A stretch of 64,000 nucleotides of DNA, taken from assembly GCF_003334385.1 (NCBI RefSeq), contig NZ_QOWN01000016.1. One strand, given 5' to 3'. The position numbers were made by a program, and so were the translations under genes. This DNA is from Escherichia coli. Lineage in GTDB: Bacteria; Pseudomonadota; Gammaproteobacteria; Enterobacterales; Enterobacteriaceae. The notes under the pieces were generated by a model that was not told the origin of the DNA, did no database searches, and saw nothing but the letters and a program-made list of their open reading frames with translations. Shown here piece by piece: positions 8,200 through 34,000 of the stretch (positions are counted from its first letter, which is position 1; every line of letters starts with the position of its first letter).

Positions 8200-9267
8200 T
8201 TAATTGGTTGCCGGATATTCCTGAATGGTGACCTGCAGCGTTAACTGCTTATCATCACGCATCACTACTACAGGGATCACCGAACCAGGGCGAATTTCCG
8301 CCACCTGATCCATCGTCTCCAGAGCAGAGATGGCCGGTTTGTTATCCACCGAAATAATCAGATCGTTGACCTGAATACCCGCATTCGCCGCCGGGCCGTC
8401 AGGTGACACTTCATTAACCACGATCCCTTGCAGTTGATCTATACCACCGCCCTGCGCGTGCAGTGGTGCGATCTCACGTCCGCCGATACCAATGTAGCCG
8501 CGGATCACGCGACCATCGCGGATCAGCTTATCCATAATTTTGGTTGCTAACTGGAAAGGAATCGCAAAGCCGATACCTTCCGGCGTTTCGCCATCGTTAC
8601 TCTTATCAAACGACAGCGTATTAATGCCCATCAGTTCGCCCAGCGAGTTCACCAGCGCGCCGCCAGAGTTACCGTGGTTAATGGAAGCATCGGTTTGGAG
8701 GAAGTTTTGCCGCCCGGTCGGGTTCAGACCGATTCGACCCGTGGCACTAATAATCCCCTGGGTAATGGTCTGCCCGAGGTTGTACGGGTTACCGATCGCC
8801 AGTACTACGTCGCCAATGTGCGGTACGCGACGTGCATTAATTGGAATGGTAGGTAAACCGCCAGTGGCATTAATTTTAAGTACCGCCAGATCGGTTAGAG
8901 AGTCAGATCCCACCAGCAATGCTTCAAATACACGTCCATCCTGTAAGGCGACGATGATCTGATCGGCGTCGTTGATGACGTGTTTATTGGTGATGATATA
9001 ACCGTGTTGATCCATGATTACACCGGATCCCAGGGTGCGGATCTCAAGCTGGTTGTGAGAGTTGGTGTTCAAACCACGGTTGTAAACGTTAACCACCGCT
9101 GGCGCGGCGCGGCGAACCGCCAGATTATAGCTGGCAGGCGTCTCATCGGTACTGTCAAATTGCGGAGTGGAAAGCGGGTTAAGGCTGCGCAGCGAAGGCA
9201 TGGCAACCAGCAGAATAGCGCCGACAATTAATCCAATCGCAACGGAACGTAAGAGCTTCACAAACAT
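8200..9267 (-). CDS. degS: Inner-membrane serine endoprotease DegS
   Basis: 355 aa with an N-terminal transmembrane anchor, trypsin-like domain and one PDZ domain; recognised as DegS. Confidence 0.95.
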   Translation of the reverse strand: MFVKLLRSVAIGLIVGAILLVAMPSLRSLNPLSTPQFDSTDETPASYNLAVRRAAPAVVNVYNRGLNTNSHNQLEIRTLGSGVIMDQHGYIITNKHVINDADQIIVALQDGRVFEALLVGSDSLTDLAVLKINATGGLPTIPINARRVPHIGDVVLAIGNPYNLGQTITQGIISATGRIGLNPTGRQNFLQTDASINHGNSGGALVNSLGELMGINTLSFDKSNDGETPEGIGFAIPFQLATKIMDKLIRDGRVIRGYIGIGGREIAPLHAQGGGIDQLQGIVVNEVSPDGPAANAGIQVNDLIISVDNKPAISALETMDQVAEIRPGSVIPVVVMRDDKQLTLQVTIQEYPATN

Positions 9268-21120: not shown

Positions 21121-22453
<1,333 letters not shown>

Positions 22454-22472
22454 AACTTAGTTCGTTTTAAAG

Positions 22473-22497
22473 ATTCTGCAGACACTGTCTGCAGAAT
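22473..22497. repeat. Palindromic element, CAGAC-N3-GTCTG family, copy 1 (extragenic, between nanQ and yhcG)
   Basis: ATTCTGCAGAC-act-GTCTGCAGAAT with perfect 11 bp arms; lies in the 59 bp gap between the two convergent genes. Confidence 0.8.
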
Positions 22498-22512
22498 TCG
22501 AAACCGCTGAAA

Positions 22513-23640
22513 TTAACGGCGTCTATAGCCTTCCTCTAGCACCGCCTGTGTTCGAACGAGTTCATCTGCGAGTCGTTTCTCATCAGGTAGTTGCATCTTA
22601 TATTCGCTTGCCAGAACGGTGTTAGGCAAACCTGCCAGAGCATAATGCGCTTCTCCGGCTCCTTTCTCTGCACAGAGAACCAGACCGATGGGCGGATTTT
22701 CATCCGGTAGCGTCCAGTGCTCTTTGGCGTAGTTGAGATACATATTCATCTGTCCGGCATCGCTATAGCTGAATTTGCCCACTTTTAGATCGACGATTAG
22801 CAGGCAGCGTAAACGGCGGTGGAAAAACAGCAGATCGACACGAAACCAGTTGTCATCAATGCGTAACCTTCGCTGCCGACCAACAAAGGCAAAATCATCC
22901 CCAAGTTCCAGCATGAAATCCATCAGGTGGTTGATCAGCGCCTCCTCAAAATCGGATTCTGAATATTCATCTTTCAATTCCAGAAATTCGAGCACAAAGG
23001 GATCGCGTATCGCCTGTTGCGGAAGAATATGCGTCTCGGCAGGAGCGTGTTGTTGCAGCATGGCTGATTTGTCATGTGACAGTAGTGTCCGCTCATAAAA
23101 CTGGGTCGCAATTTGCCGCTCTAGCTGGCGAACAGACCAGCCACAGCGGAGCGTCTCTTTTTCATAAAAGCTGCGGGCGTCAGCGTTTTTAACGGAAAGT
23201 AAACGGACGTAGGTGGACCTGGGCAAGGGGAAAGATTTGGCAGACAGCGTCTGCCAAATCTTTGCCGATGGGAATTCTGCAGACGGTGTCTGCGGAATTC
23301 CCAATGGTGTTAATTCGCCAGACATTGTCTGGCGAATTTCAACATGTTGAAAAAAGAGGTAAAAAAGCCTCATTTGGCGTAAGTTTTTTGCAGAGAACCC
23401 ACGCTTATACCTTAGACATAAATCCTTTGATAGTCGCTTGATTAGCTGCGCACCATACGCAGCCCTGGCCTCGCCACCTTGTTCAAATTCGACAATTCGT
23501 CGGCCAATTTCCTGGTACGTCGCGGTCATTAACGCGTTAACGCTACGTACCGTTTCCGTCCGGGCGCTATCGACCAGATGAATAATACCGTCGTGGATTT
23601 GCTGGTAGCCTGCTGTGGTTCCTTCTGAGAGCGATTCCAT
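22513..23640 (-). CDS. yhcG: YhcG, DUF1016-type protein with a predicted PDDEXK nuclease-like C-terminal region; function unknown
   Basis: 375 aa ORF convergent with nanQ; recognised as YhcG; the centre carries three in-frame 39 bp palindromic repeats (23231-23338). Confidence 0.8.
   Translation of the reverse strand: MESLSEGTTAGYQQIHDGIIHLVDSARTETVRSVNALMTATYQEIGRRIVEFEQGGEARAAYGAQLIKRLSKDLCLRYKRGFSAKNLRQMRLFYLFFQHVEIRQTMSGELTPLGIPQTPSAEFPSAKIWQTLSAKSFPLPRSTYVRLLSVKNADARSFYEKETLRCGWSVRQLERQIATQFYERTLLSHDKSAMLQQHAPAETHILPQQAIRDPFVLEFLELKDEYSESDFEEALINHLMDFMLELGDDFAFVGRQRRLRIDDNWFRVDLLFFHRRLRCLLIVDLKVGKFSYSDAGQMNMYLNYAKEHWTLPDENPPIGLVLCAEKGAGEAHYALAGLPNTVLASEYKMQLPDEKRLADELVRTQAVLEEGYRRR
23231..23338. 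repeat. Three tandem palindromic elements of the same family (copies 2-4), 39 bp period, inside the yhcG reading frame
   Basis: AAAGATTTGGCAGAC-agc-GTCTGCCAAATCTTT (perfect 15 bp arms), GGGAATTCTGCAGAC-ggt-GTCTGCGGAATTCCC (one mismatch), AATTCGCCAGAC-att-GTCTGGCGAATT (perfect 12 bp arms); centres 39 bp apart; the minus strand translates as ...RQTMSGELTPLGIPQTPSAEFPSAKIWQTLSAKSFP... within YhcG. Confidence 0.85.
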
Positions 23641-23824
23641 TATCTGTCCCTTTATATGGAGCTAAGTTGAATAATGGAATGAGCTATACTCTGGGGGGTG
23701 AGCACTGAACAATTAAGAACAGCGTATTACATTTACTTTCCCCAAGATATGCGAAGAGCTTTCCTGAAACATTAACCGATCGTATAAAACGAATGCCTGA
23801 TAGTACTCCTGTCCGGCATTGTTA

Positions 23825-24541
23825 TCACAAGTAGACTACGCTTATCACAGCTTTCCCATCAAGTTCGATTTTTTCTGAACCGCCTAAATCATTCGCGATA
23901 GATGCGCTCACCTGAAGCGGTATAATGGCGTTCGTTACAGGAGTTGGGGTTGTTTCACCTGGTTTTACAAAGGTGTAATAATAGCTTTGATCGACTGCAA
24001 GCGGATAAGCGGTGAGCGTTTGCCATGCTCTTTTTTGCCCTGTTATGACGGCATCTGCACCTGCTATTGATACAGCTAACGTCTGGCTACCATTGCTGGC
24101 ACTAATGTTGTTGCTATCAATTAACACGGCATAACTACCGATATTTTTATTATCTTTTGTTTTCCCTAAGCCGAATAAGCGCGTTGTCTGGCTAATATAA
24201 CCTCCGCCATTTAAGGTATATTTTACACCACTCTGACCCCCACTATCTTTTCCGGTGGTCATACTATCCATTCGTGTATCACGAGCGGTAATCGCAATGC
24301 TGGTAGCGGATTCGCAAGTTATAGTCATATTAATATTACGTGTTCCAATCTGTGTGTAGTGCTGCGTTGAAAGTCTATTGACTGAATGACTACCGAAGTT
24401 AACAACTCCGCCGTTGCTTAGTATTGGAGTACAAGCTGCAGCTTCCAGAGTCACCTTAACGTCAATTGATACTCTATCAGCGGCTTGCGCTGACATGGCA
24501 AAAAAGGCACTTCCGGCAATCAGTAATTTTACATTGTTCAT
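23825..24541 (-). CDS. yhcF: Secreted fimbrial-like protein YhcF (DUF1120 type)
   Basis: 238 aa with signal peptide MNNVKLLIAGSAFFAMSAQA; paralogous pattern to GltF (GxCTP...ITC); last gene of the chaperone-usher operon. Confidence 0.8.
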   Translation of the reverse strand: MNNVKLLIAGSAFFAMSAQAADRVSIDVKVTLEAAACTPILSNGGVVNFGSHSVNRLSTQHYTQIGTRNINMTITCESATSIAITARDTRMDSMTTGKDSGGQSGVKYTLNGGGYISQTTRLFGLGKTKDNKNIGSYAVLIDSNNISASNGSQTLAVSIAGADAVITGQKRAWQTLTAYPLAVDQSYYYTFVKPGETTPTPVTNAIIPLQVSASIANDLGGSEKIELDGKAVISVVYL

Positions 24542-25089
24542 TTTGCCTCCACCAGGACCGTCAGATTGCCTGTAATATCTGTCATGTCGGTTAGTTCCCC
24601 TTCATCCTTAAAAGCTGGAGCCATTGTCAGTGTGAGGCTAACGCTTTTACCGCTATCAATTACCACTTCTTGACCATTTTGCATAAACACCAGCCAATTA
24701 TTGGGGGAAGTACTAATTGATGCTGTTCCTGTGCTGCCCGGATTGTCATTTTTGCCACTGGCTAACGCCAGGTCGAGATTGTTACTACCTGAAAATGCAT
24801 CGCTGGCGATCAGATTTAATGAACCATTCGGGCCAAATCCAAATCCGTTGTTGGAAATATTAGCGGTATTCAACTGAACACGAATATGAGCGTCCTGATC
24901 GCATTGCATTACCAGCGTGATTGTTCTGTCTGCTAATTGTGTTGTTTTACCCCGGTCAACTTGGCGCATGGCAGCACTTCGTTTGCCATAGTCGATATTT
25001 TGTATGCTACTGGAGATATTACACTCTGCCTGAGCGGCCATGGCGAAGTTCAGCAGCAGGCATCCTGTTATTATCCGTTTCATTGGCAC
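24538..25089 (-). CDS. yhcE: Secreted fimbrial-like protein YhcE (DUF1120 type), apparently intact
   Basis: 183 aa with a signal peptide; start overlaps the yhcD stop by 10 nt. Confidence 0.75.
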   Translation of the reverse strand: MPMKRIITGCLLLNFAMAAQAECNISSSIQNIDYGKRSAAMRQVDRGKTTQLADRTITLVMQCDQDAHIRVQLNTANISNNGFGFGPNGSLNLIASDAFSGSNNLDLALASGKNDNPGSTGTASISTSPNNWLVFMQNGQEVVIDSGKSVSLTLTMAPAFKDEGELTDMTDITGNLTVLVEAK

Positions 25090-27461
25090 TCTCCTGTTGC
25101 TGTCTCATAGAACACATCTTTTGGTGCATCTTCTGGGAATGTAAGGTGAATACGGCATGATTGCTGCTCATCTTTTATATCTAGCACCATGTCCGGTTTG
25201 ATGTTATTGAGGAATACAACACCGTCATCCACTGATGTTGTCAGATAGTTGCCTTCACTATCTTCAATCGCAACGCCTCTGGGCAGTTTTTTGCCGTCGG
25301 AAAGTGTGATATTGAGTAATGCACGGCGTTGTGTTATCGCACTGAATCCGACTTTCCCTACTGCACCACGGCCTTGTTTGATCATTTTTGTGCCGTTACC
25401 GATATCGACATTTTTTGGCAAGCTGGCGGTATCGATCTCAACTCCTGATGTTCGCCACGACTGGATTGATGGAATGACGGCATTACCCCGAAAATCTGTC
25501 CATACTGGGCCTGCCTGAGATGTAATTCTGACACCTGCAATATTGTTATCCATTTTTGCGATGGCGAAAGTGTCATTGATAGTCCACGGTGAAAAGGTCA
25601 CTCCCTGATCATGTACGGCAATACCACCTGACATCGTACCGTTGTAAGTACGGCTATCACTGCCGCTTGCTCCTGCGGCAAGGCTGACTTGGGTGTAATG
25701 GAGATTGGAACTGATACTGCCGTTCAAGCTCGTTTCACGTTCGTCGTGATCTCGTTCAGCATTCACATAGTAGGACATCTCATCTGAGACGACTCCCATG
25801 ACACCAGTACCATAGTGGGTTTTATGATCGTCATGGCGAGTATACAGTGTGGCGGTGTTTGATCTGCCAAATGGAATACTGATGTTGACGTAGAACAGAT
25901 CACCATCGTCTTCATTATTTTCTGAAGCACTAAGTTGATGCTGCCAGTTGACGGAAACCGTGGCGTGTTTGAACGCTTTGTTCCAGTTAATATTAAGGTT
26001 GCTTGAGTCATTGTCACCGTCGTAACTATATGTTTTATAGCCACTGATGTTGAAACCACCCAGAATGGAGTTAGACCAGTTTAAACCAAGCGCATAAGTG
26101 CTTTTAGTCGGATCGGTATAATCATCATCAATCGCTTCAGACAGTTCGCGATAATGGCGATCAGATCGAGTGAGGCTGGTTGTTAGCCCAAGTGAAAATG
26201 GGAGATTGTAGTTCGCGTCAAGACGATATTTCTGTCCTTGCAGTGAGTCTTTCGTATCCTGCGATGTACTAATTTGGCTGCTCACTGTTAAATCGGGCAG
26301 GGGAACCAGACTCGACCGGATTGATGCCGCCTGATAATTTTCTGCTACGATAACGCCGCCGTTCATTGCACTCCAGCGTGTCAGATTCCATCCGCTCGAT
26401 GCACTAATTACCCAAGGTGATTCGTCATAGTCATCGTCTACCCGCCCTATCGCGAAGCGATAACCCTGGAAGCTTTCTACATGCTGATTAAACAGGGTGG
26501 AGGGAACAATATAGTTGTGCGAACTACCGTCTGTTTCGACAACGGTGACATTAAGATCACTATTACCATTGCGAACAGGTACATCAGGGATAGTGAATGC
26601 GCCCGCAGGAACCAGAATGGAATGAATTAAAACTCCTTGTTGACGAATCTCGACACGAGCCTGAGAGGTGTTGGCTATACCAGTAACTTGCACACCACTG
26701 CCGCTGGTTTGCAATGCGTTGTCCGGTGCGATTTCGATACCGTAAATACTGGCTCCTTCCAACACGCTATTATTGAGGTTAACTTCACCTGCTCGCATGA
26801 GTGTTTTAAGATCTGTAAAGGTACGTTGAAGGTAGGTTGACGAGTTCTGGTTACTGAATGTGCCATTTGTTTGTGTAAGGAACTGATGGCTGCGTAACAT
26901 CCAGTCATTAATATTAATCCCGCCTTCAAGTGCAGCCTGGGAGTAGTCCGAACTCCCATTAGAAAATTCTGCACGGCTGCTCATCAGAGAGTAGTTTAGC
27001 AGCGCAGCTGTTCCACCAGTTGCTGCGTTTGTGAGATCCAACCCTATGGGAATGATCGCCTGTGGTGAAACGATAATATCTAACGCTTCCTGGTTAGGTA
27101 ATGGTGTGATTGTGGTACCCGGGTAGGACAATATATAGTCGTAACAGCCATTTTTTTCTTCAGAAGGAATTTTTAAACCGGCTTGTTGCAGAAATGCCTG
27201 ATCAAGACAAATGTCGCCATTTTCATCAAAGCGCGTAGCAATGTTGCCTTTTTTTTCGCCATTTACTGATACTATCAGTGAATATTCACCTGGCAAAAAA
27301 CGGGCTGAACGGGAAAAATAATGCGATATATTAGGATCTACACCTAGTGATTTTAATGTTTCCCGATCAAAATCAACAGCGGCAATCTCTATACCATCTG
27401 CATTGGCTGGGGGAGAAAAGGCAAAACCAATGGTGTAGGCCAGTAACGTTTTTTTTAACAT
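25080..27461 (-). CDS. yhcD: Outer-membrane fimbrial usher
   Basis: About 793 aa from MLKKTLLAYTIG (track ORF 799 aa); usher-like beta-barrel sequence with a C-terminal Cys pair. Confidence 0.88.
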   Translation of the reverse strand: MLKKTLLAYTIGFAFSPPANADGIEIAAVDFDRETLKSLGVDPNISHYFSRSARFLPGEYSLIVSVNGEKKGNIATRFDENGDICLDQAFLQQAGLKIPSEEKNGCYDYILSYPGTTITPLPNQEALDIIVSPQAIIPIGLDLTNAATGGTAALLNYSLMSSRAEFSNGSSDYSQAALEGGININDWMLRSHQFLTQTNGTFSNQNSSTYLQRTFTDLKTLMRAGEVNLNNSVLEGASIYGIEIAPDNALQTSGSGVQVTGIANTSQARVEIRQQGVLIHSILVPAGAFTIPDVPVRNGNSDLNVTVVETDGSSHNYIVPSTLFNQHVESFQGYRFAIGRVDDDYDESPWVISASSGWNLTRWSAMNGGVIVAENYQAASIRSSLVPLPDLTVSSQISTSQDTKDSLQGQKYRLDANYNLPFSLGLTTSLTRSDRHYRELSEAIDDDYTDPTKSTYALGLNWSNSILGGFNISGYKTYSYDGDNDSSNLNINWNKAFKHATVSVNWQHQLSASENNEDDGDLFYVNISIPFGRSNTATLYTRHDDHKTHYGTGVMGVVSDEMSYYVNAERDHDERETSLNGSISSNLHYTQVSLAAGASGSDSRTYNGTMSGGIAVHDQGVTFSPWTINDTFAIAKMDNNIAGVRITSQAGPVWTDFRGNAVIPSIQSWRTSGVEIDTASLPKNVDIGNGTKMIKQGRGAVGKVGFSAITQRRALLNITLSDGKKLPRGVAIEDSEGNYLTTSVDDGVVFLNNIKPDMVLDIKDEQQSCRIHLTFPEDAPKDVFYETATGECQ

Positions 27462-27481
27462 CCTTGTCGCTCCAGGCAAAG

Positions 27482-28156
27482 TTATTTTAAGTCAGTGACA
27501 TATTTATTACCGCGATAACCATATCGGCTGGCTGGGTAAAACTCGACTTTTGTATCCGTAGCGTTTGTTAATGCAGTAGTTGTACTGGTGTGTGGTAGAA
27601 AATAGGTCTTATTTATAGCCCCCGTTTTTCCTGAAGGGAGCGTTTTAAATTGTAAGGTCATACGAACGACATAATTACTGGGGTTGCTAATCTCAATTTG
27701 GTCGCCATTTTTACGCCATTCCAGGAATTTCCAGGTCTCTCGCTCTTCCGGCAGGGAAGCCGGGTGGATCAGTACAGGTAGATCCTGACGAATTGAAACA
27801 GTAACTCTGCTGCTCTTGTCATCTTTTGGTGGAATACCTTCGAACGTTACGCGTTTCAGCTCTTCTGATTGCAGAGGAACAGTCGCCTGAAGTAAAAATC
27901 GAACCTGTTGTACTTGACCGGCTTCAACACGAATAACGGGCTGAGTCGGGATTAAACGAATTGATTTATTGCTTTCAGGCAAATCAACAATGGTGGTGTA
28001 AAGCAATGAAGGATGATCATCTGTATTCTTAATATTAATACTAGCTTCACCACGCTTTTCATCAACCAGCAATACTGATGTTTCAGGAACCATCCCTGTG
28101 GCTAAGGTATTCATTGATGTTGTTATAAATACAGTGAATGTAATGTGTCTGAGCAT
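27482..28156 (-). CDS. yhcA: Periplasmic fimbrial chaperone (PapD-like)
   Basis: 224 aa with a signal peptide; 2 bp upstream of the usher gene. Confidence 0.88.
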   Translation of the reverse strand: MLRHITFTVFITTSMNTLATGMVPETSVLLVDEKRGEASINIKNTDDHPSLLYTTIVDLPESNKSIRLIPTQPVIRVEAGQVQQVRFLLQATVPLQSEELKRVTFEGIPPKDDKSSRVTVSIRQDLPVLIHPASLPEERETWKFLEWRKNGDQIEISNPSNYVVRMTLQFKTLPSGKTGAINKTYFLPHTSTTTALTNATDTKVEFYPASRYGYRGNKYVTDLK

Positions 28157-28327
28157 TTAAATTAAAACTCCTGTAATAATGATAAATAACGCAGAAACAT
28201 ATTGTTAATATATGTTATGCACTGTTTGCGATGAGATTGATTAAGACAGACCATGTCATAGGGCATAATCTGTCCGAGTTATAGCTAACTGGTTAATGCG
28301 TAAAAATAAAAACTGTATTACAAGTTC

Positions 28328-29092
28328 TTATAAATACTGAACGCTGATAGTGACGTTACCATCCAGTTTGATCGTTTCATCAGAACCAAGAATAGTATTG
28401 TCATTTACCGCAGCATCAATCAGTAACGGGAAGGTGACCGCTGTAATGGCAACAGGTGTCAGTTCCCCTGTTTTTGCAACAGAATAACCGCGCTCGATTG
28501 CTGAGCAACTTGTCAGCGAGCAGAATGCGCCATTAGATGAGGCTTTCCATGTGGGGGTCGCTGCTGACCAGTGGTCAGTTTGAATCAGGTCGACAGGAAT
28601 TTCACCTGTATCGTCCGCCGCGTGAATCCCACCATTAGACCTGTCAATACCAATGGATGCAGCGCCAATTTTTTGTCCATTAGGCGCAGAACCTAAACCA
28701 AAGGCGTTTTTCGTTCCCTTCATATCTACGAGAGTATCATAAGCTTTTTCAATATAGGATGTGTCGTTTAACGCTACAATGGTCGACTGACGGTTATCCT
28801 TGGAGGTTACAGCAATTAGCGTTGGTGCTGTGCAGGTTATATTTAATGTGCTGTTTTTGCGGCCCAGTTGAACCAGTTTATTACTTTTACCGGTCGGATT
28901 CAGCGCACTGTTATGATGTTTCCCATAGTCAACAATGCCGCCGCCCGTAACAACTGGGGTACATGCACCAGGGGTATACTCGCCGATGATAGTTAATTCT
29001 GTATCAGTTGAATCTGTTGCCATGGCACTGAATGCTGCAACAGAAAGTGCTGCACAAATAGCAGCTGTTGTGAGGTTCTTTTTGAAAAACAT
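28328..29092 (-). CDS. gltF: Secreted fimbrial-like protein GltF (DUF1120 type), probable first subunit of the chaperone-usher operon
   Basis: 254 aa with signal peptide MFFKKNLTTAAICAALSVAAFSAMA; paralogous to YhcF. Confidence 0.85.
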   Translation of the reverse strand: MFFKKNLTTAAICAALSVAAFSAMATDSTDTELTIIGEYTPGACTPVVTGGGIVDYGKHHNSALNPTGKSNKLVQLGRKNSTLNITCTAPTLIAVTSKDNRQSTIVALNDTSYIEKAYDTLVDMKGTKNAFGLGSAPNGQKIGAASIGIDRSNGGIHAADDTGEIPVDLIQTDHWSAATPTWKASSNGAFCSLTSCSAIERGYSVAKTGELTPVAITAVTFPLLIDAAVNDNTILGSDETIKLDGNVTISVQYL

Positions 29093-29611
29093 ATGAACAT
29101 ATCCTTAATAACAAATTTATTTTTTAAAATAAAAAGCTGAAGCAGTATATATATCTGTTTGTGAATGTAAATAAATAACTCGTTCAGAAATAGCCAACTT
29201 GCTGGGATGTATTTATTTAATGAATTTTATAGTTACGATCATGTGAATAATAAGGTGCTGGTGAGGTGGTTTGTGGTGATAATTATTCATTACATGAATG
29301 TTTGCGCTGAAAAATAGGAAAATATATAGATAATTAAGGATAATATATTGGTTTTTTATATTCATATTTTGTATATTAATATCGAGACAATTTACATGGA
29401 ATGAAAAGACTGAATAGCTTGCAGAATCGGTATTGTCAGAGGTGTTAACAAGTAATTGAGACGGATTGTAAATGAGAAATTGCTTGATGTGCTTCACTCA
29501 TCAGACTTGGTGAACAAAGCACAATTTATTGAAAATTATCCCTATTATAGGAAAGGTCAAACGCTCATGCCGCATTTGCCAGAAAACAACGCGCACTTCG
29601 TCAGTAATTTG

Positions 29612-29636
29612 ATTCGCCAGACACAGTCTGGCGAAT
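29612..29636. repeat. Palindromic element, CAGAC-N3-GTCTG family, copy 5 (extragenic, just downstream of gltD)
   Basis: ATTCGCCAGAC-aca-GTCTGGCGAAT with perfect 11 bp arms; arms identical to intragenic copy 4. Confidence 0.8.
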
Positions 29637-29651
29637 TCATTGTTACCTCGC

Positions 29652-31082
<1,431 letters not shown>

Positions 31083-34000
31083 TTACTGCGCCTGCACGCG
31101 CAACTCAGCTGCGCTACGACTACGGTGACCCAGCAGTGCTTTTACATCACTGGACTTCGGTTTAACCAGCGCAAATTTAGTGGCGAAGGTTGACCAGTTC
31201 GCCAGAATCTCTTCACCGCGCTGAGAGCCGGTATGCTGCACATGCTCGGTGATAAGACCACGCAGATGCTCTTCATGGATCGCCAGAGCGTCAACGCTTA
31301 AGACCTCGACCAGTTCCGGGTTAACGCGTTTGCGGAAATCGCCGCTTTCATCGAGAACGTAAGCGAAACCGCCGGTCATGCCCGCACCGAAGTTAACGCC
31401 GGTTTTACCCAGAATGCAGACGATACCACCCGTCATATATTCACAACCGTTGTCGCCAATGCCTTCTACCACGGTGATAGCACCGGAGTTACGCACGCCG
31501 AAACGTTCACCCGCGCGGCCTGCGGCATACAGACGACCACCGGTCGCGCCATACAGGCAGGTGTTGCCGATAATGCTTGCTTCATGGCTGCGGAAGGCGG
31601 AACCAACCGGAGGACGAATGGCGATTAAGCCGCCCGCCATGCCTTTACCGACATAGTCGTTGGCATCACCGGTCAGGTACAGTTCCACGCCGCCCGCGTT
31701 CCACACGCCGAAGCTCTGGCCTGCGGTGCCGTTGAAGTACGCTTTGATAGGATCGGCTGCCAGCCCCTGATCGCCGTGCGTCTGGGCGATATAGCCTGAA
31801 AGCGACGCGCCGACAGAACGGTCGGTGTTGCGAATATCGAACCAGAAGGTTTTGCTCTGGCGCTCATCGACAAACGGTTTCGCCTGTTGCAGCAACTGCG
31901 CGTTCAGCAGGCCGTTATCAAACGGCGGGTTGTTTTCGGTGCAGTAGAGTGCCTTACCTGGATGCGGTTCGGCAGTCTCCAGCAGCTTCGACAGCGCCAG
32001 CTTCTGCTGTTTGGCGGTGAAACCGTCCAGCTCTTTCAGCAGGTCGGTGCGACCAATCAGATCCACCAGACGTGTTACGCCAAGCTGTGCCATCAGCTCG
32101 CGGGTTTCACGGGCGATAAACTCAAAGTAATTCGTCACCTTGAATGGCAGGCCGTGATAGTGGTTCTTACGCAGTTTGTCATCCTGAGTTGCTACACCCG
32201 TTGCGCAGTTGTTCAGATGGCAAATACGTAGATATTTACAGCCGAGCGCCACCATCGGGCCAGTGCCGAAGCCGAAGCTTTCTGCGCCGAGAATCGCCGC
32301 CTTGATGATATCGACACCCGTTTTCAGGCCGCCATCGACCTGCAAACGGATCTTGTGACGCAAGCCGTTAGCAACCAGCGCCTGCTGGGTTTCAACAAGC
32401 CCCAGCTCCCACGGACAGCCTGCGTATTTCACCGATGAAAGCGGACTTGCGCCGGTGCCGCCGTCATAGCCTGCGATGGTGATCAAGTCCGCATAAGCTT
32501 TTGCCACGCCAGTCGCGATGGTGCCTACTCCCGGTTCGGAAACCAGCTTCACGGAGATCATCGCTTTCGGGTTAACCTGCTTGAGGTCGAAAATGAGCTG
32601 CGCTAAGTCCTCGATAGAGTAGATATCGTGGTGCGGCGGCGGGGAGATCAGCGTCACTCCGGGCACCGAATAGCGCAGTTTGGCGATGTAAGGCGTGACT
32701 TTATCACCCGGCAACTGACCGCCTTCGCCTGGCTTCGCGCCCTGGGCGACTTTAATCTGAATGACGTCGGCATTGACCAGATACGCCGGAGTAACCCCAA
32801 AGCGACCGGAAGCCACCTGCTTGATGCGCGACACTTTGTTGGTGCCGTAGCGCGCCGGGTCTTCGCCGCCTTCACCGGAGTTCGAATTACCGCCGATGCT
32901 GTTCATCGCTTCCGCCAGCGCCTCGTGGGCTTCCGGGCTTAACGCGCCGATAGACATCGCGGCGGTATCAAAGCGTTTAAACAGTTCGCTTGCCGGTTCA
33001 ACATCAGCAATGTTGACCGCGTTTTCACCCGGCGTAATTGCCAGCAGATCGCGCAGCGTGGTTGCCGGACGCTCATTAACCAGCTTCGCGTATTCCTGAT
33101 AGTCGCTGTACTCGCCGCTTTGTACCGCTTGTTGCAGCGTGCGCACCACGTCCGGGTTGTAGGCGTGGTATTCGCCGCCGTGGACGTATTTCAGCAGACC
33201 GCCCTGGCTGATGGGCTTACGCGCCAGCCAGGCACGTTTCGACAGATTCAGCAGATCCTGCTGGAAGTCTTCAAAGCTTGCTCCACCAATGCGGCTGACC
33301 GCCCCCTGGAAGCACAGGCCCACTACATCATCGTGTAGACCGACCGCTTCAAACAGTTTCGAGCAGCGGTAAGAGGCGATGGTGGAGATGCCCATTTTGG
33401 ACATGATTTTGTACAAGCCTTTGTTGATGCCGTTACGGTAGTTGAGCATCACGGTACGATAATCTTTGGCAATCGCATGGGTGTCTACCAGGCGGCCCAG
33501 CGTTTCATAGGCAAGGTATGGATAAATAGCCGTCGCGCCGAAGCCCAGCAACACGGCGAAGTGGTGCGGATCGCGGGCGCTGGCGGTTTCGACGATGATG
33601 TTGGCATCGCAACGCAGGCTTTGATCGACCAGACGGGTCTGGATCGCGCCAACCGCCATCGGGGCTGGAACCGGCAGGCGATCTTTAGCGATATTCCGGT
33701 CGGAGAGCACCAGCAGCACGGTGCCGCTACGTACCATTTTTTCGGCTTTGTCGCACAGCTCTTTGACTGTCGCTTCGAGCGTGGTTTTAGTGACGTCAAA
33801 GGTGATATCCAGCGTATCTGCGCGGTAGTGCTCCTCTTTCATCGTCGTGAGCTGTTTGAAATCGGAGTAGAGCAGAATCGGCGATTTAAAGCTTAAACGG
33901 TGCGCCTGGCCCTCTGCTTCGCAAAAGACGTTCATTTCACGACCGATACTGGTGGCGAGCGACATAACATGCGCTTCACGCAGCGGGTCGATTGGCGGGT

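Follow-up and report, generated by a model that had tools for sequence, protein, structure and literature searches.

The 64,000-nucleotide stretch of Escherichia coli DNA analysed here (the window) carries on its minus strand, between positions 23825 and 29092, five co-oriented open reading frames with zero internal stop codons, corresponding to gltF, yhcA, yhcD, yhcE, and yhcF. The locus is textbook K-12 content and represents one of the 12 chaperone-usher operons of strain MG1655. The genes, the island in which they sit, and the position occupied by an insertion sequence in K-12 are as follows:

23770..29649, minus strand: low-GC island of 5.9 kb carrying gltF-yhcADEF, inserted between gltD (at its stop codon) and the region upstream of yhcG
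28328-29092, minus strand: gltF, 254 aa; first gene of the operon; DUF1120 subunit bearing a signal peptide plus an N-terminal extension
27482-28156, minus strand: yhcA, 224 aa; periplasmic PapD-like chaperone of the beta type
25080-27461, minus strand: yhcD, 793 aa; outer-membrane usher, full length
24538-25083, minus strand: yhcE, 181 aa; predicted pilin-fold protein with a signal peptide and no N-terminal donor strand
23825-24541, minus strand: yhcF, 238 aa, 717 bp; the other DUF1120 subunit, whose N-terminal extension resembles a donor strand
24713..24716, no strand assigned: empty IS5 target site, reading CTAA on the plus strand; the site of IS5R in K-12

The boundaries of the island are given by comparison with E. 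coli HS, a phylogroup A strain that lacks it: the HS sequence matches the window up to position 23769 and resumes at 29650, with ∼53 bp in between. GC content is ∼0.31-0.49 within the island and 0.55-0.60 in the flanking gltBD and nan regions. The island is carried by 1141 of 5426 complete E. coli genomes (about 21%) and is missing from about 79%, and identity among the carriers is at least 99%. The initial annotation had described five co-oriented, uninterrupted genes that include a chaperone (yhcA) and an usher (yhcD), and this description holds, the reading frames being open and the family models being matched by their products. It had also reported overlaps of 10 bp between yhcD and yhcE and 4 bp between yhcE and yhcF, of which only the latter stands as given. 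The 10-bp overlap requires a GTG start codon sitting 1 nt past an AGGAG sequence, whereas the ATG at 25083, which is the RefSeq start, has AGGAG 7 nt upstream and yields a 4-bp ATGA overlap with yhcD. Judged from these signals, yhcD and yhcE most probably overlap by 4 bp (ATGA) rather than 10 bp, the same length as at the yhcE/yhcF junction.

In MG1655, yhcE (b4569) is annotated as a pseudogene split by IS5R. Both MG1655 and a K-12-like strain carry a 1195-bp IS5 at exactly the equivalent of window positions 24713-24716, bounded by duplicated CTAA/TTAG, whereas the window is without the 1195-bp element and retains a single CTAA. Removal of the IS5 and of one copy of the 4-bp target duplication from MG1655 reproduces the window with the exception of six SNPs in 11.3 kb. 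No residue differs between the window and MG1655 in GltF, YhcA, or the restored YhcE, and a single residue differs in YhcD (P668S) and in YhcF (G81S). An inactivating effect of YhcD P668S was ruled out, as ushers vary at this column (P, A, or E). The expectation that K-12 bears an IS5 in yhcE from which the window is free is thus confirmed by both the alignment to MG1655 and its annotation. The K-12 IS5 site in yhcE is uninterrupted in 788 of the 1141 carrier genomes, a count that concerns interruption at this site only. An IS-free yhc locus has already been published from 13 phylogroup A ETEC genomes (Del Canto et al., 2017; PMC5216030), and the ETEC and K-12 loci share with the window the same position, gene order, and essentially the same sequence. 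The yhcF gene of the window is full length at 717 bp, in contrast to the truncated yhcF2/yhcF3 variants. The intact, IS5-free form is common in natural strains and already known, and its presence here is a correct but ordinary finding.

The usher YhcD comprises PapC_N (residues 31-159), Usher (176-706; E=4e-150), and PapC_C (715-777) domains, and matches NF011832 with 1271 bits against a cut-off of 723, with residues 1-793 covered in a model of 801 positions. The locus encodes a PapD-like chaperone (YhcA) and a complete outer-membrane usher (YhcD), two of the elements expected of a chaperone-usher operon. Placement of this usher in the beta clade follows from its near-identity to MG1655 YhcD (one residue different), the E. 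coli reference member, from its NF011832/PRK15304 match above cut-off, and from the published assignment of Yhc (PMC5216030; PMC9238391). The region is almost certainly an intact beta-class chaperone-usher operon, gltF-yhcADEF, and the initial view of it as the uninterrupted form of a non-canonical, cryptic chaperone-usher system is backed by both the analysis and the literature.

Operons orthologous to this one, with an unchanged gene order and 48-85% identity, occur in E. albertii, Enterobacter, Klebsiella, Leclercia, and Citrobacter, and the sequence motifs, invariant cysteines, C-terminal Tyr, and chaperone cleft residues are conserved across them. The divergent alleles within Escherichia, in E. 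albertii and E. ruysiae, stand at 75-85% identity. The beta class is the least studied chaperone-usher clade. Another member of this clade is Stj of Salmonella enterica; its chromosomal location and gene order differ from those of Yhc. The NCBIfam models NF011832/PRK15304 and PRK15301-PRK15303, which we take to derive from the stj operon, are matched by the window proteins above cut-off in the case of NF011832/PRK15304, but below the equivalog cut-offs in the case of PRK15301 (YhcE-like) and PRK15302/PRK15303 (DUF1120-like); with 54-107 bits against cut-offs of 226-337, the Stj and Yhc subunits are only distantly related. When induced, Stj forms discrete thin fibres of 2.3-3.5 nm (PMC5583245).

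YhcA matches Pfam PapD_N (E=1e-23) and, over its full length, NCBIfam NF007392 (320 bits against a cut-off of 183), and its sequence matches in the PDB include Caf1M, DraB, CupB2, and PapD; with Pfam PapD_C, the C-terminal domain is undetected in YhcA, though detected in some orthologues. In an alignment with FimC, R8 is replaced by Val (with Ser beside it) and K112 by Pro, replacements that are kept across 13 beta-type chaperones, and no basic residue lies within two positions either side of the R8 or K112 sites. YhcA thereby departs from the classical FGS/FGL chaperones of the Pap, Fim, and Caf1 type, in which an invariant Arg8/Lys112 pair binds the subunit C-terminal carboxylate, and shares with beta-fimbriae chaperones the lack of this anchor. 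Beta-fimbriae chaperones have been described as carrying residues analogous to the non-classical anchor and as closer in this respect to non-classical systems, although they do not have a register-shifted donor strand (Gln at P0) (Pakharukova et al., 2015; PMC4654587), and the YhcA cleft agrees with this published cleft type since it is without Arg8/Lys112. The archaic and alternative systems, such as Acinetobacter Csu and E. coli ECP, are likewise without the classical anchor (PMC4654587), but the Yhc usher belongs phylogenetically within the classical clades, and the Yhc subunits are of the DUF1120 rather than the SCPU or EcpA types. The chaperone seems to combine traits of the two pathways, classical and non-classical, as a hybrid.

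The initial annotation had treated GltF, YhcE, and YhcF as three DUF1120 paralogues sharing a single GxCTP...ITC pattern, which is upheld for two of them. GltF and YhcF are both members of Pfam DUF1120 (PF06551; E=1.8e-45 and E=2.4e-47, respectively), carry the motif as xACTP...ITC, and are clear paralogues of each other, with 30% identity (E=5e-26). YhcE, conversely, falls under the DUF1120 threshold (E=0.12) and reads AECNIS...VMQC in the corresponding segments. In DUF1120 proteins the penultimate residue is an invariant Tyr, and the C-terminus is conserved as LDGxAVIS-VYL. GltF carries a cleavable signal peptide, and both YhcF and GltF have an N-terminal extension with alternating hydrophobic residues, as seen in the mature N-terminus of YhcF, ADRVSIDVKVTLE. 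A search of the PDB with the YhcF sequence returned nothing meaningful (one chance match, E=0.026) and a search with YhcE gave no match, so that a comparison of folds was needed. Structure prediction, named in the initial annotation as a check on the subunits, yields a pilin-like fold for YhcF and YhcE, the two proteins that were folded. In the AlphaFold2 model of YhcF (pLDDT 83), residues 1-34, which include the extension, are disordered, and the remainder resembles FimI, FimA, and PapA.

YhcE is a single-domain protein with a signal peptide and 162 mature residues, and its relation to the DUF1120 proteins is more remote. A simple paralogy with GltF or YhcF was rejected: BLASTP comparisons of YhcE with each are not significant. 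Against Pfam DUF1120, 1 of 56 YhcE-family members reaches E≤0.001. By hhalign, however, YhcE matches DUF1120 with 93% probability (E=3.5e-7) over 45 columns, restricted to the Cys-Cys segment, and the profile link between the YhcE family and DUF1120 starts at the first Cys. From profile and predicted fold, YhcE is only a distant relative of the DUF1120 proteins. A pilin-type Ig fold is confidently predicted for it, with the FimH pilin domain as the best structural match and the PapG pilin domain and PapE also near the top, and faint matches to Pfam MrpH_C are seen in the YhcE family. Members of this family have only 1-3 residues ahead of the first Cys and hence no N-terminal donor strand, a feature shared with the two-domain tip adhesins FimH, PapG, and MrpH; FimH/PapG-type adhesins have two domains, whereas YhcE has one and is without a separate receptor-binding domain. 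YhcE is without the C-terminal Tyr motif seen in DUF1120 subunits. A lipoprotein assignment was also rejected, as the Cys is preceded by E, D, or N and not by G, A, or S.

Related operons place YhcE-like genes in a consistent setting. In the complete, independent loci L005, L010/L011, and L014, a YhcE-like gene comes immediately after the usher gene, and this arrangement is also seen with an usher C-terminal fragment in L009 and with unannotated partial ORFs in L012/L013. The 4-nt overlap between the two genes often recurs. In other related operons, this position is taken by two-domain proteins of 375-394 aa that align end to end with YhcE and mature YhcF without a gap at the junction, the YhcE-like domain being N-terminal (distal) and the DUF1120 domain C-terminal. 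The pairing of YhcE with YhcF is not universal, as no DUF1120 gene follows the YhcE-like gene in L010.

These features suggest how the operon might work. Following Sec export, YhcA would cap each subunit by donor-strand complementation and hand it over to the usher YhcD, where the N-terminal extension of the incoming subunit would replace the chaperone strand in the previous one and the fibre would grow outward through YhcD. With a predicted pilin fold and no N-terminal extension, YhcE could accept a strand but not donate one, so that it would be the first subunit incorporated and occupy the distal tip. YhcF, whose gene overlaps yhcE by 4 bp and whose counterpart is fused to a YhcE-like domain elsewhere, would donate its strand to YhcE and is, on its modelled fold, a candidate adaptor joining YhcE to the fibre; GltF, the product of the promoter-proximal gene, would form the shaft and is from its gene position the likely major subunit. 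A thin, flexible fibre resembling that of Salmonella Stj (2.3-3.5 nm) would be expected as the product. We consider this explanation as a whole, an intact beta-class operon with the assembly mechanism described, to be probable. That the operon assembles a surface fibre when expressed is favoured with somewhat more reserve, and the specific order of YhcE tip, YhcF adaptor, and GltF shaft, drawn from sequence and models, is proposed tentatively, at a little under an even chance. By analogy with other cryptic fimbrial operons, of which its AT-rich upstream region is typical, expression is probably silent in laboratory conditions.

Beta-class loci have been described as without recognisable tip subunits, and YhcE as without a predictable function (PMC5216030). 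A broader proposal, which we regard as plausible but more doubtful than the subunit order, is that beta-class fimbriae do have a dedicated tip in the donor-strand-less YhcE family, and that yhcE and yhcF are the split equivalent of the two-domain proteins, in which the linker would be the YhcF donor strand complementing the YhcE-like domain in cis. If true, this would run contrary to the published view, and the fused homologues would be natural counterparts of engineered donor-strand-complemented constructs. A YhcE tip paired with YhcF amounts to a specific, testable assembly order. The IS-free allele, otherwise near-identical to K-12, offers a convenient expression template.

The lack of a recognisable beta-class tip can also be read differently: an afimbrial, capsule-like polyadhesin without a specialised tip, of the kind that Nuccio and Baumler proposed for beta-fimbriae according to Del Canto et al. 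(PMC5216030), would leave YhcE as an accessory periplasmic or assembly factor, for which the missing C-terminal Tyr motif might also speak. This is improbable given that YhcE has a predicted pilin-type Ig fold whose best matches are pilin domains residing in fibres, that its counterpart in other operons is joined covalently to a downstream DUF1120 pilin domain, and that Stj takes the form of discrete thin fibres rather than a capsule. An older annotation separates GltF from yhcADEF altogether and makes it a regulator of nitrogen metabolism encoded by the third gene of a gltBDF operon. The gene does lie downstream of gltBD on the same strand; Castano et al. in 1992 are said to have proposed a regulatory role for GltF, and Goss et al. 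in 2001 reportedly found no nitrogen phenotype for gltF. Some papers still place gltF in gltBDF (e.g., PMC8403718), but its product is made with a cleavable signal peptide and is paralogous, within DUF1120, to YhcF, for which a pilin fold is modelled; the island on which the gene resides is lacking in most of the E. coli strains that retain gltBD; between gltD and gltF lie a strong hairpin and 559 bp of AT-rich DNA; and the current MG1655 annotation is "periplasmic protein GltF". The nitrogen-regulator reading is effectively already refuted, and we give it almost no credence.

A weightier alternative to the functional fibre operon is that the genes are intact in sequence but belong to a decaying, silent remnant, their open frames reflecting recent ancestry with K-12-like strains. 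The island is found in only 1141 of the 5426 complete genomes and is absent even from phylogroup A strain HS, and the close identity of its carriers means that intactness says little about purifying selection. The locus has been struck repeatedly and independently by IS elements across genomes, namely IS5 (in K-12), IS1, ISKpn26, and ISVsa5, which fits relaxed selection, and IS5 has also inserted into the gltF-yhcA spacer during laboratory evolution (PMC8403718). Premature yhcD stop codons and truncated yhcF variants occur in ETEC, where a yhc knockout left adherence to Caco-2 cells unchanged (PMC5216030). Most carriers, however, are uninterrupted at the K-12 site in yhcE (788 of 1141), operons with the same gene order and conserved motifs persist at 48-85% identity in the other genera and species listed above, and the Salmonella counterpart Stj does form fibres (PMC5583245). 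Decay is thus considered unlikely, and an operon capable of assembling a fibre remains the preferred reading.

Candidate regulatory and RNA elements of this operon lie at the following positions:

29611..29638, minus strand: strong hairpin upstream of gltF, directly past the stop codon of gltD; perfect 10-bp stem GCCAGAC..., -22.6 kcal/mol, z=-3.1
29144..29171, minus strand: sigma-70-like promoter candidate TTTACA-16-TATACT with 10/12 matches, ∼50 bp upstream of gltF in the AT-rich spacer, from a consensus scan
28244..28275, minus strand: 12-bp hairpin in the 171-bp gltF-yhcA spacer; -21.3 kcal/mol, z=-3.2
23788..23823, minus strand: terminator-like hairpin with a short U tract directly past the yhcF stop codon, from sequence reading and folding; weak, z=-1.7

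A motif scan for promoters and terminators returned sites no more frequently than in shuffled sequence, so that those named here are positional candidates only, and an Rfam scan of positions 22000-31500 found no RNA family at E≤1. The hairpin at 29611..29638 lies inside the island and is therefore not part of the ancestral gltBD 3′ end. By analogy with the pap and fim operons, the hairpin in the gltF-yhcA spacer may act as an attenuator or stabilise the mRNA past the first subunit gene.

Five co-oriented open reading frames, none of which contains an internal stop, occupy positions 23825-29092 on the minus strand of the window and form gltF-yhcADEF (Yhc), the reference beta-class chaperone-usher locus of E. 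coli:

28328-29092, minus strand, gltF, 254 aa
27482-28156, minus strand, yhcA, 224 aa
25080-27461, minus strand, yhcD, 793 aa
24538-25083, minus strand, yhcE, 181 aa
23825-24541, minus strand, yhcF, 238 aa

The RefSeq annotation of a genome with 100% identity across the query gives the same genes and boundaries, and the five uninterrupted frames described in the initial annotation were borne out. That annotation had also placed an IS5 insertion in yhcE of K-12 MG1655 (NC_000913.3), where the gene (b4569) is indeed annotated as a pseudogene split by IS5R. This is correct, since cutting out of MG1655 both the 1195-bp IS5 and a single copy of the 4-bp target duplication (CTAA, window 24713-24716) leaves a sequence that matches the window apart from six substitutions over 11.3 kb. 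No residue differs between the two in GltF, YhcA, or the restored YhcE, while nonsynonymous differences are found in YhcD (P668S, window 25460), in a column that varies among ushers, and in YhcF (G81S, window 24301), where most orthologues carry Gly. The observation is therefore real and its reading as an uninterrupted non-canonical chaperone-usher system is right, but both the locus and its uninterrupted state were already known. IS-free gltF-yhcADEF had been described in 13 phylogroup A ETEC genomes, and full-length YhcE in 353 database entries, by Del Canto et al. (2017; PMC5216030), whose yhc mutant showed no defect in adhesion to Caco-2 cells. Yhc is typical of a largely non-pathogenic cluster (adhesiomeR, 2024), and its operon was among the 12 chaperone-usher operons removed in MG1655 engineering work. 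Induction of the Salmonella beta-fimbria Stj yields thin fibres, of 2.3-3.5 nm (PMC5583245).

Of 5426 complete E. coli genomes, 1141 are matched by a 221-bp probe spanning the IS5 site, and the site is uninterrupted in 788 of these, the rest being largely K-12 laboratory derivatives. Independent insertions of IS1, of ISKpn26 with IS1A, and of ISVsa5 lie inside the locus in different carriers (genome matches H1, H7, and H9), and in a laboratory evolution experiment IS5 entered the spacer between gltF and yhcA (PMC8403718); the AT-rich yhc locus seems to attract IS elements.

The entire cluster is absent from E. coli HS, which matches the window to 23769 and resumes at 29650, two bases ahead of the gltD stop, with ∼53 bp containing a different hairpin (9170-9222 of the HS locus) in place of window 23770-29649. 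This indel takes in gltF-yhcADEF, the hairpin after gltD, and an AT-rich spacer. Because the whole cluster is missing from HS and the GC content of the cluster (0.31-0.49) lies below that of the flanks (0.55-0.60), gltF-yhcADEF constitutes a 5.9-kb lower-GC island, and gltF therefore did not belong to the ancestral glt operon. The hairpin 3′ of gltD is strong (z=-3.1) and is followed by AT-rich DNA, 559 bp long, in which a promoter-like site is well placed but statistically unremarkable; a second hairpin lies in the gltF-yhcA spacer (z=-3.2), and a search of Rfam returned no family matching the region. Beyond the cluster, yhcG (window 22513-23640; PDDEXK nuclease/DUF1016) is intact and only ∼80-92% identical in most other E. 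coli genomes. In HS it is truncated beside a transposase, and in strain DETEC-S560 an IS3-family element splits it. This flank, too, has the look of a variable hotspot.

The gene overlaps had been taken to suggest translational coupling, but the overlap between yhcD and yhcE is most likely 4 bp and not the 10 bp proposed. The GTG start behind the 10-bp overlap lies only 1 nt after an AGGAG, whereas the ATG at 25083, which is the RefSeq start, has this AGGAG 7 nt upstream and gives a 4-bp overlap (ATGA), like that at the yhcE/yhcF junction. A 4-nt overlap of a yhcE-like gene with the gene upstream recurs in the unrelated loci L010, L012, and L013 (in the last two the upstream frame is partial and without Pfam annotation), and this recurrence supports coupling as a conserved feature.

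YhcA is a PapD-like chaperone by profile and sequence matches, and in YhcD the PapC_N, Usher, and PapC_C domains make up a complete usher. Aligned with MG1655 FimC, YhcA has Val (adjoining a Ser) for the Arg8 anchor and Pro for Lys112, replacements kept in 13 beta-type chaperones, and is not a classical chaperone; the non-classical cleft of the beta class has already been published (Pakharukova et al., 2015; PMC4654587).

The claim of three DUF1120 paralogues sharing one motif stands for GltF (E=1.8e-45) and YhcF (E=2.4e-47), the only significant matches to the family, which are 30% identical and share the cysteine pattern xACTP...ITC. It fails for YhcE, which scores E=0.12 against the DUF1120 model, carries AECNIS...VMQC instead, and does not match GltF or YhcF significantly by BLASTP. 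At the C-terminus of the DUF1120 proteins the penultimate Tyr is invariant and LDGxAVIS-VYL is kept. Ahead of the first Cys, hydrophobic residues alternate in YhcF (ADRVSIDVKVTLE) and its orthologues, and more weakly in GltF, in a stretch that looks like a donor strand. A lack of the pilin-like Ig fold in DUF1120 proteins would have counted against the initial reading; YhcF, the one of them that was modelled, is instead predicted to be pilin-like.

YhcE belongs to a family of proteins of ∼175-200 aa, for which a profile search against 1.84 billion representative proteins gave 119 matches at E≤0.001, and two cysteines are the only invariant residues among 56 aligned members. Because the mature N-terminus in this alignment starts 1-3 residues ahead of the first invariant Cys, the family is linked to DUF1120 from that Cys onward (profile-profile, 93% probability, E=3.5e-7), and AlphaFold2 models YhcE with confidence (pLDDT 93.1), YhcE is predicted to be a pilin-fold protein that lacks the N-terminal donor strand. 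If assembly follows donor-strand exchange, only the distal end of a fibre would then be open to it.

In every readable yhc-like locus, the YhcE-like gene lies directly 3′ of its upstream gene, which encodes a complete usher in L005, L010/L011, and L014, a C-terminal usher fragment in L009, and an unannotated partial frame in L012/L013; the complete loci also contain DUF1120 genes and a PapD_N chaperone. In L005 (6001-7128) and L009 (787-1920), a protein of 375-377 aa with two domains occupies the YhcE-like position after the usher. A YhcE-like N-terminal domain is joined to a DUF1120 C-terminal domain in five proteins of this kind (P0085, P0091, P0095, P0103, and P0110; 375-394 aa), and YhcE plus mature YhcF aligns with them end to end with no gap at the junction, the counterpart of the YhcF N-terminal extension being the inter-domain linker. 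This fusion argues that YhcE would adjoin a DUF1120 subunit in the fibre, with YhcE distal, and the proposed order would run from YhcE at the tip through YhcF, the adaptor, to GltF, which would form the shaft. In L010 (1642-7573), three tandem DUF1120 genes, a chaperone, an usher, and a YhcE-like gene are followed by no DUF1120 gene, and YhcE/YhcF adjacency is therefore not universal. That YhcE is a donor-strand-less tip subunit forming a split two-domain unit with YhcF is tentatively put forward as possible, if somewhat short of probable; it alone among these results may add to the literature and, if true, would hold moderate interest for pilus biologists.

Some members of the YhcE family (L009:787-1920, L012:1311-1856, and L013:1269-1814) show faint Pfam matches to MrpH_C, which in the tip adhesin of Proteus MR/P is the pilin domain; these matches fit a tip role as a hint and are not evidence for it. 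The YhcE profile also matches 5-16 repeated stretches in each of several very large proteins (P0083, of 4559 aa, P0128, P0141, P0146, and P0176), which may represent tandem YhcE-like Ig modules in giant adhesin-like proteins.
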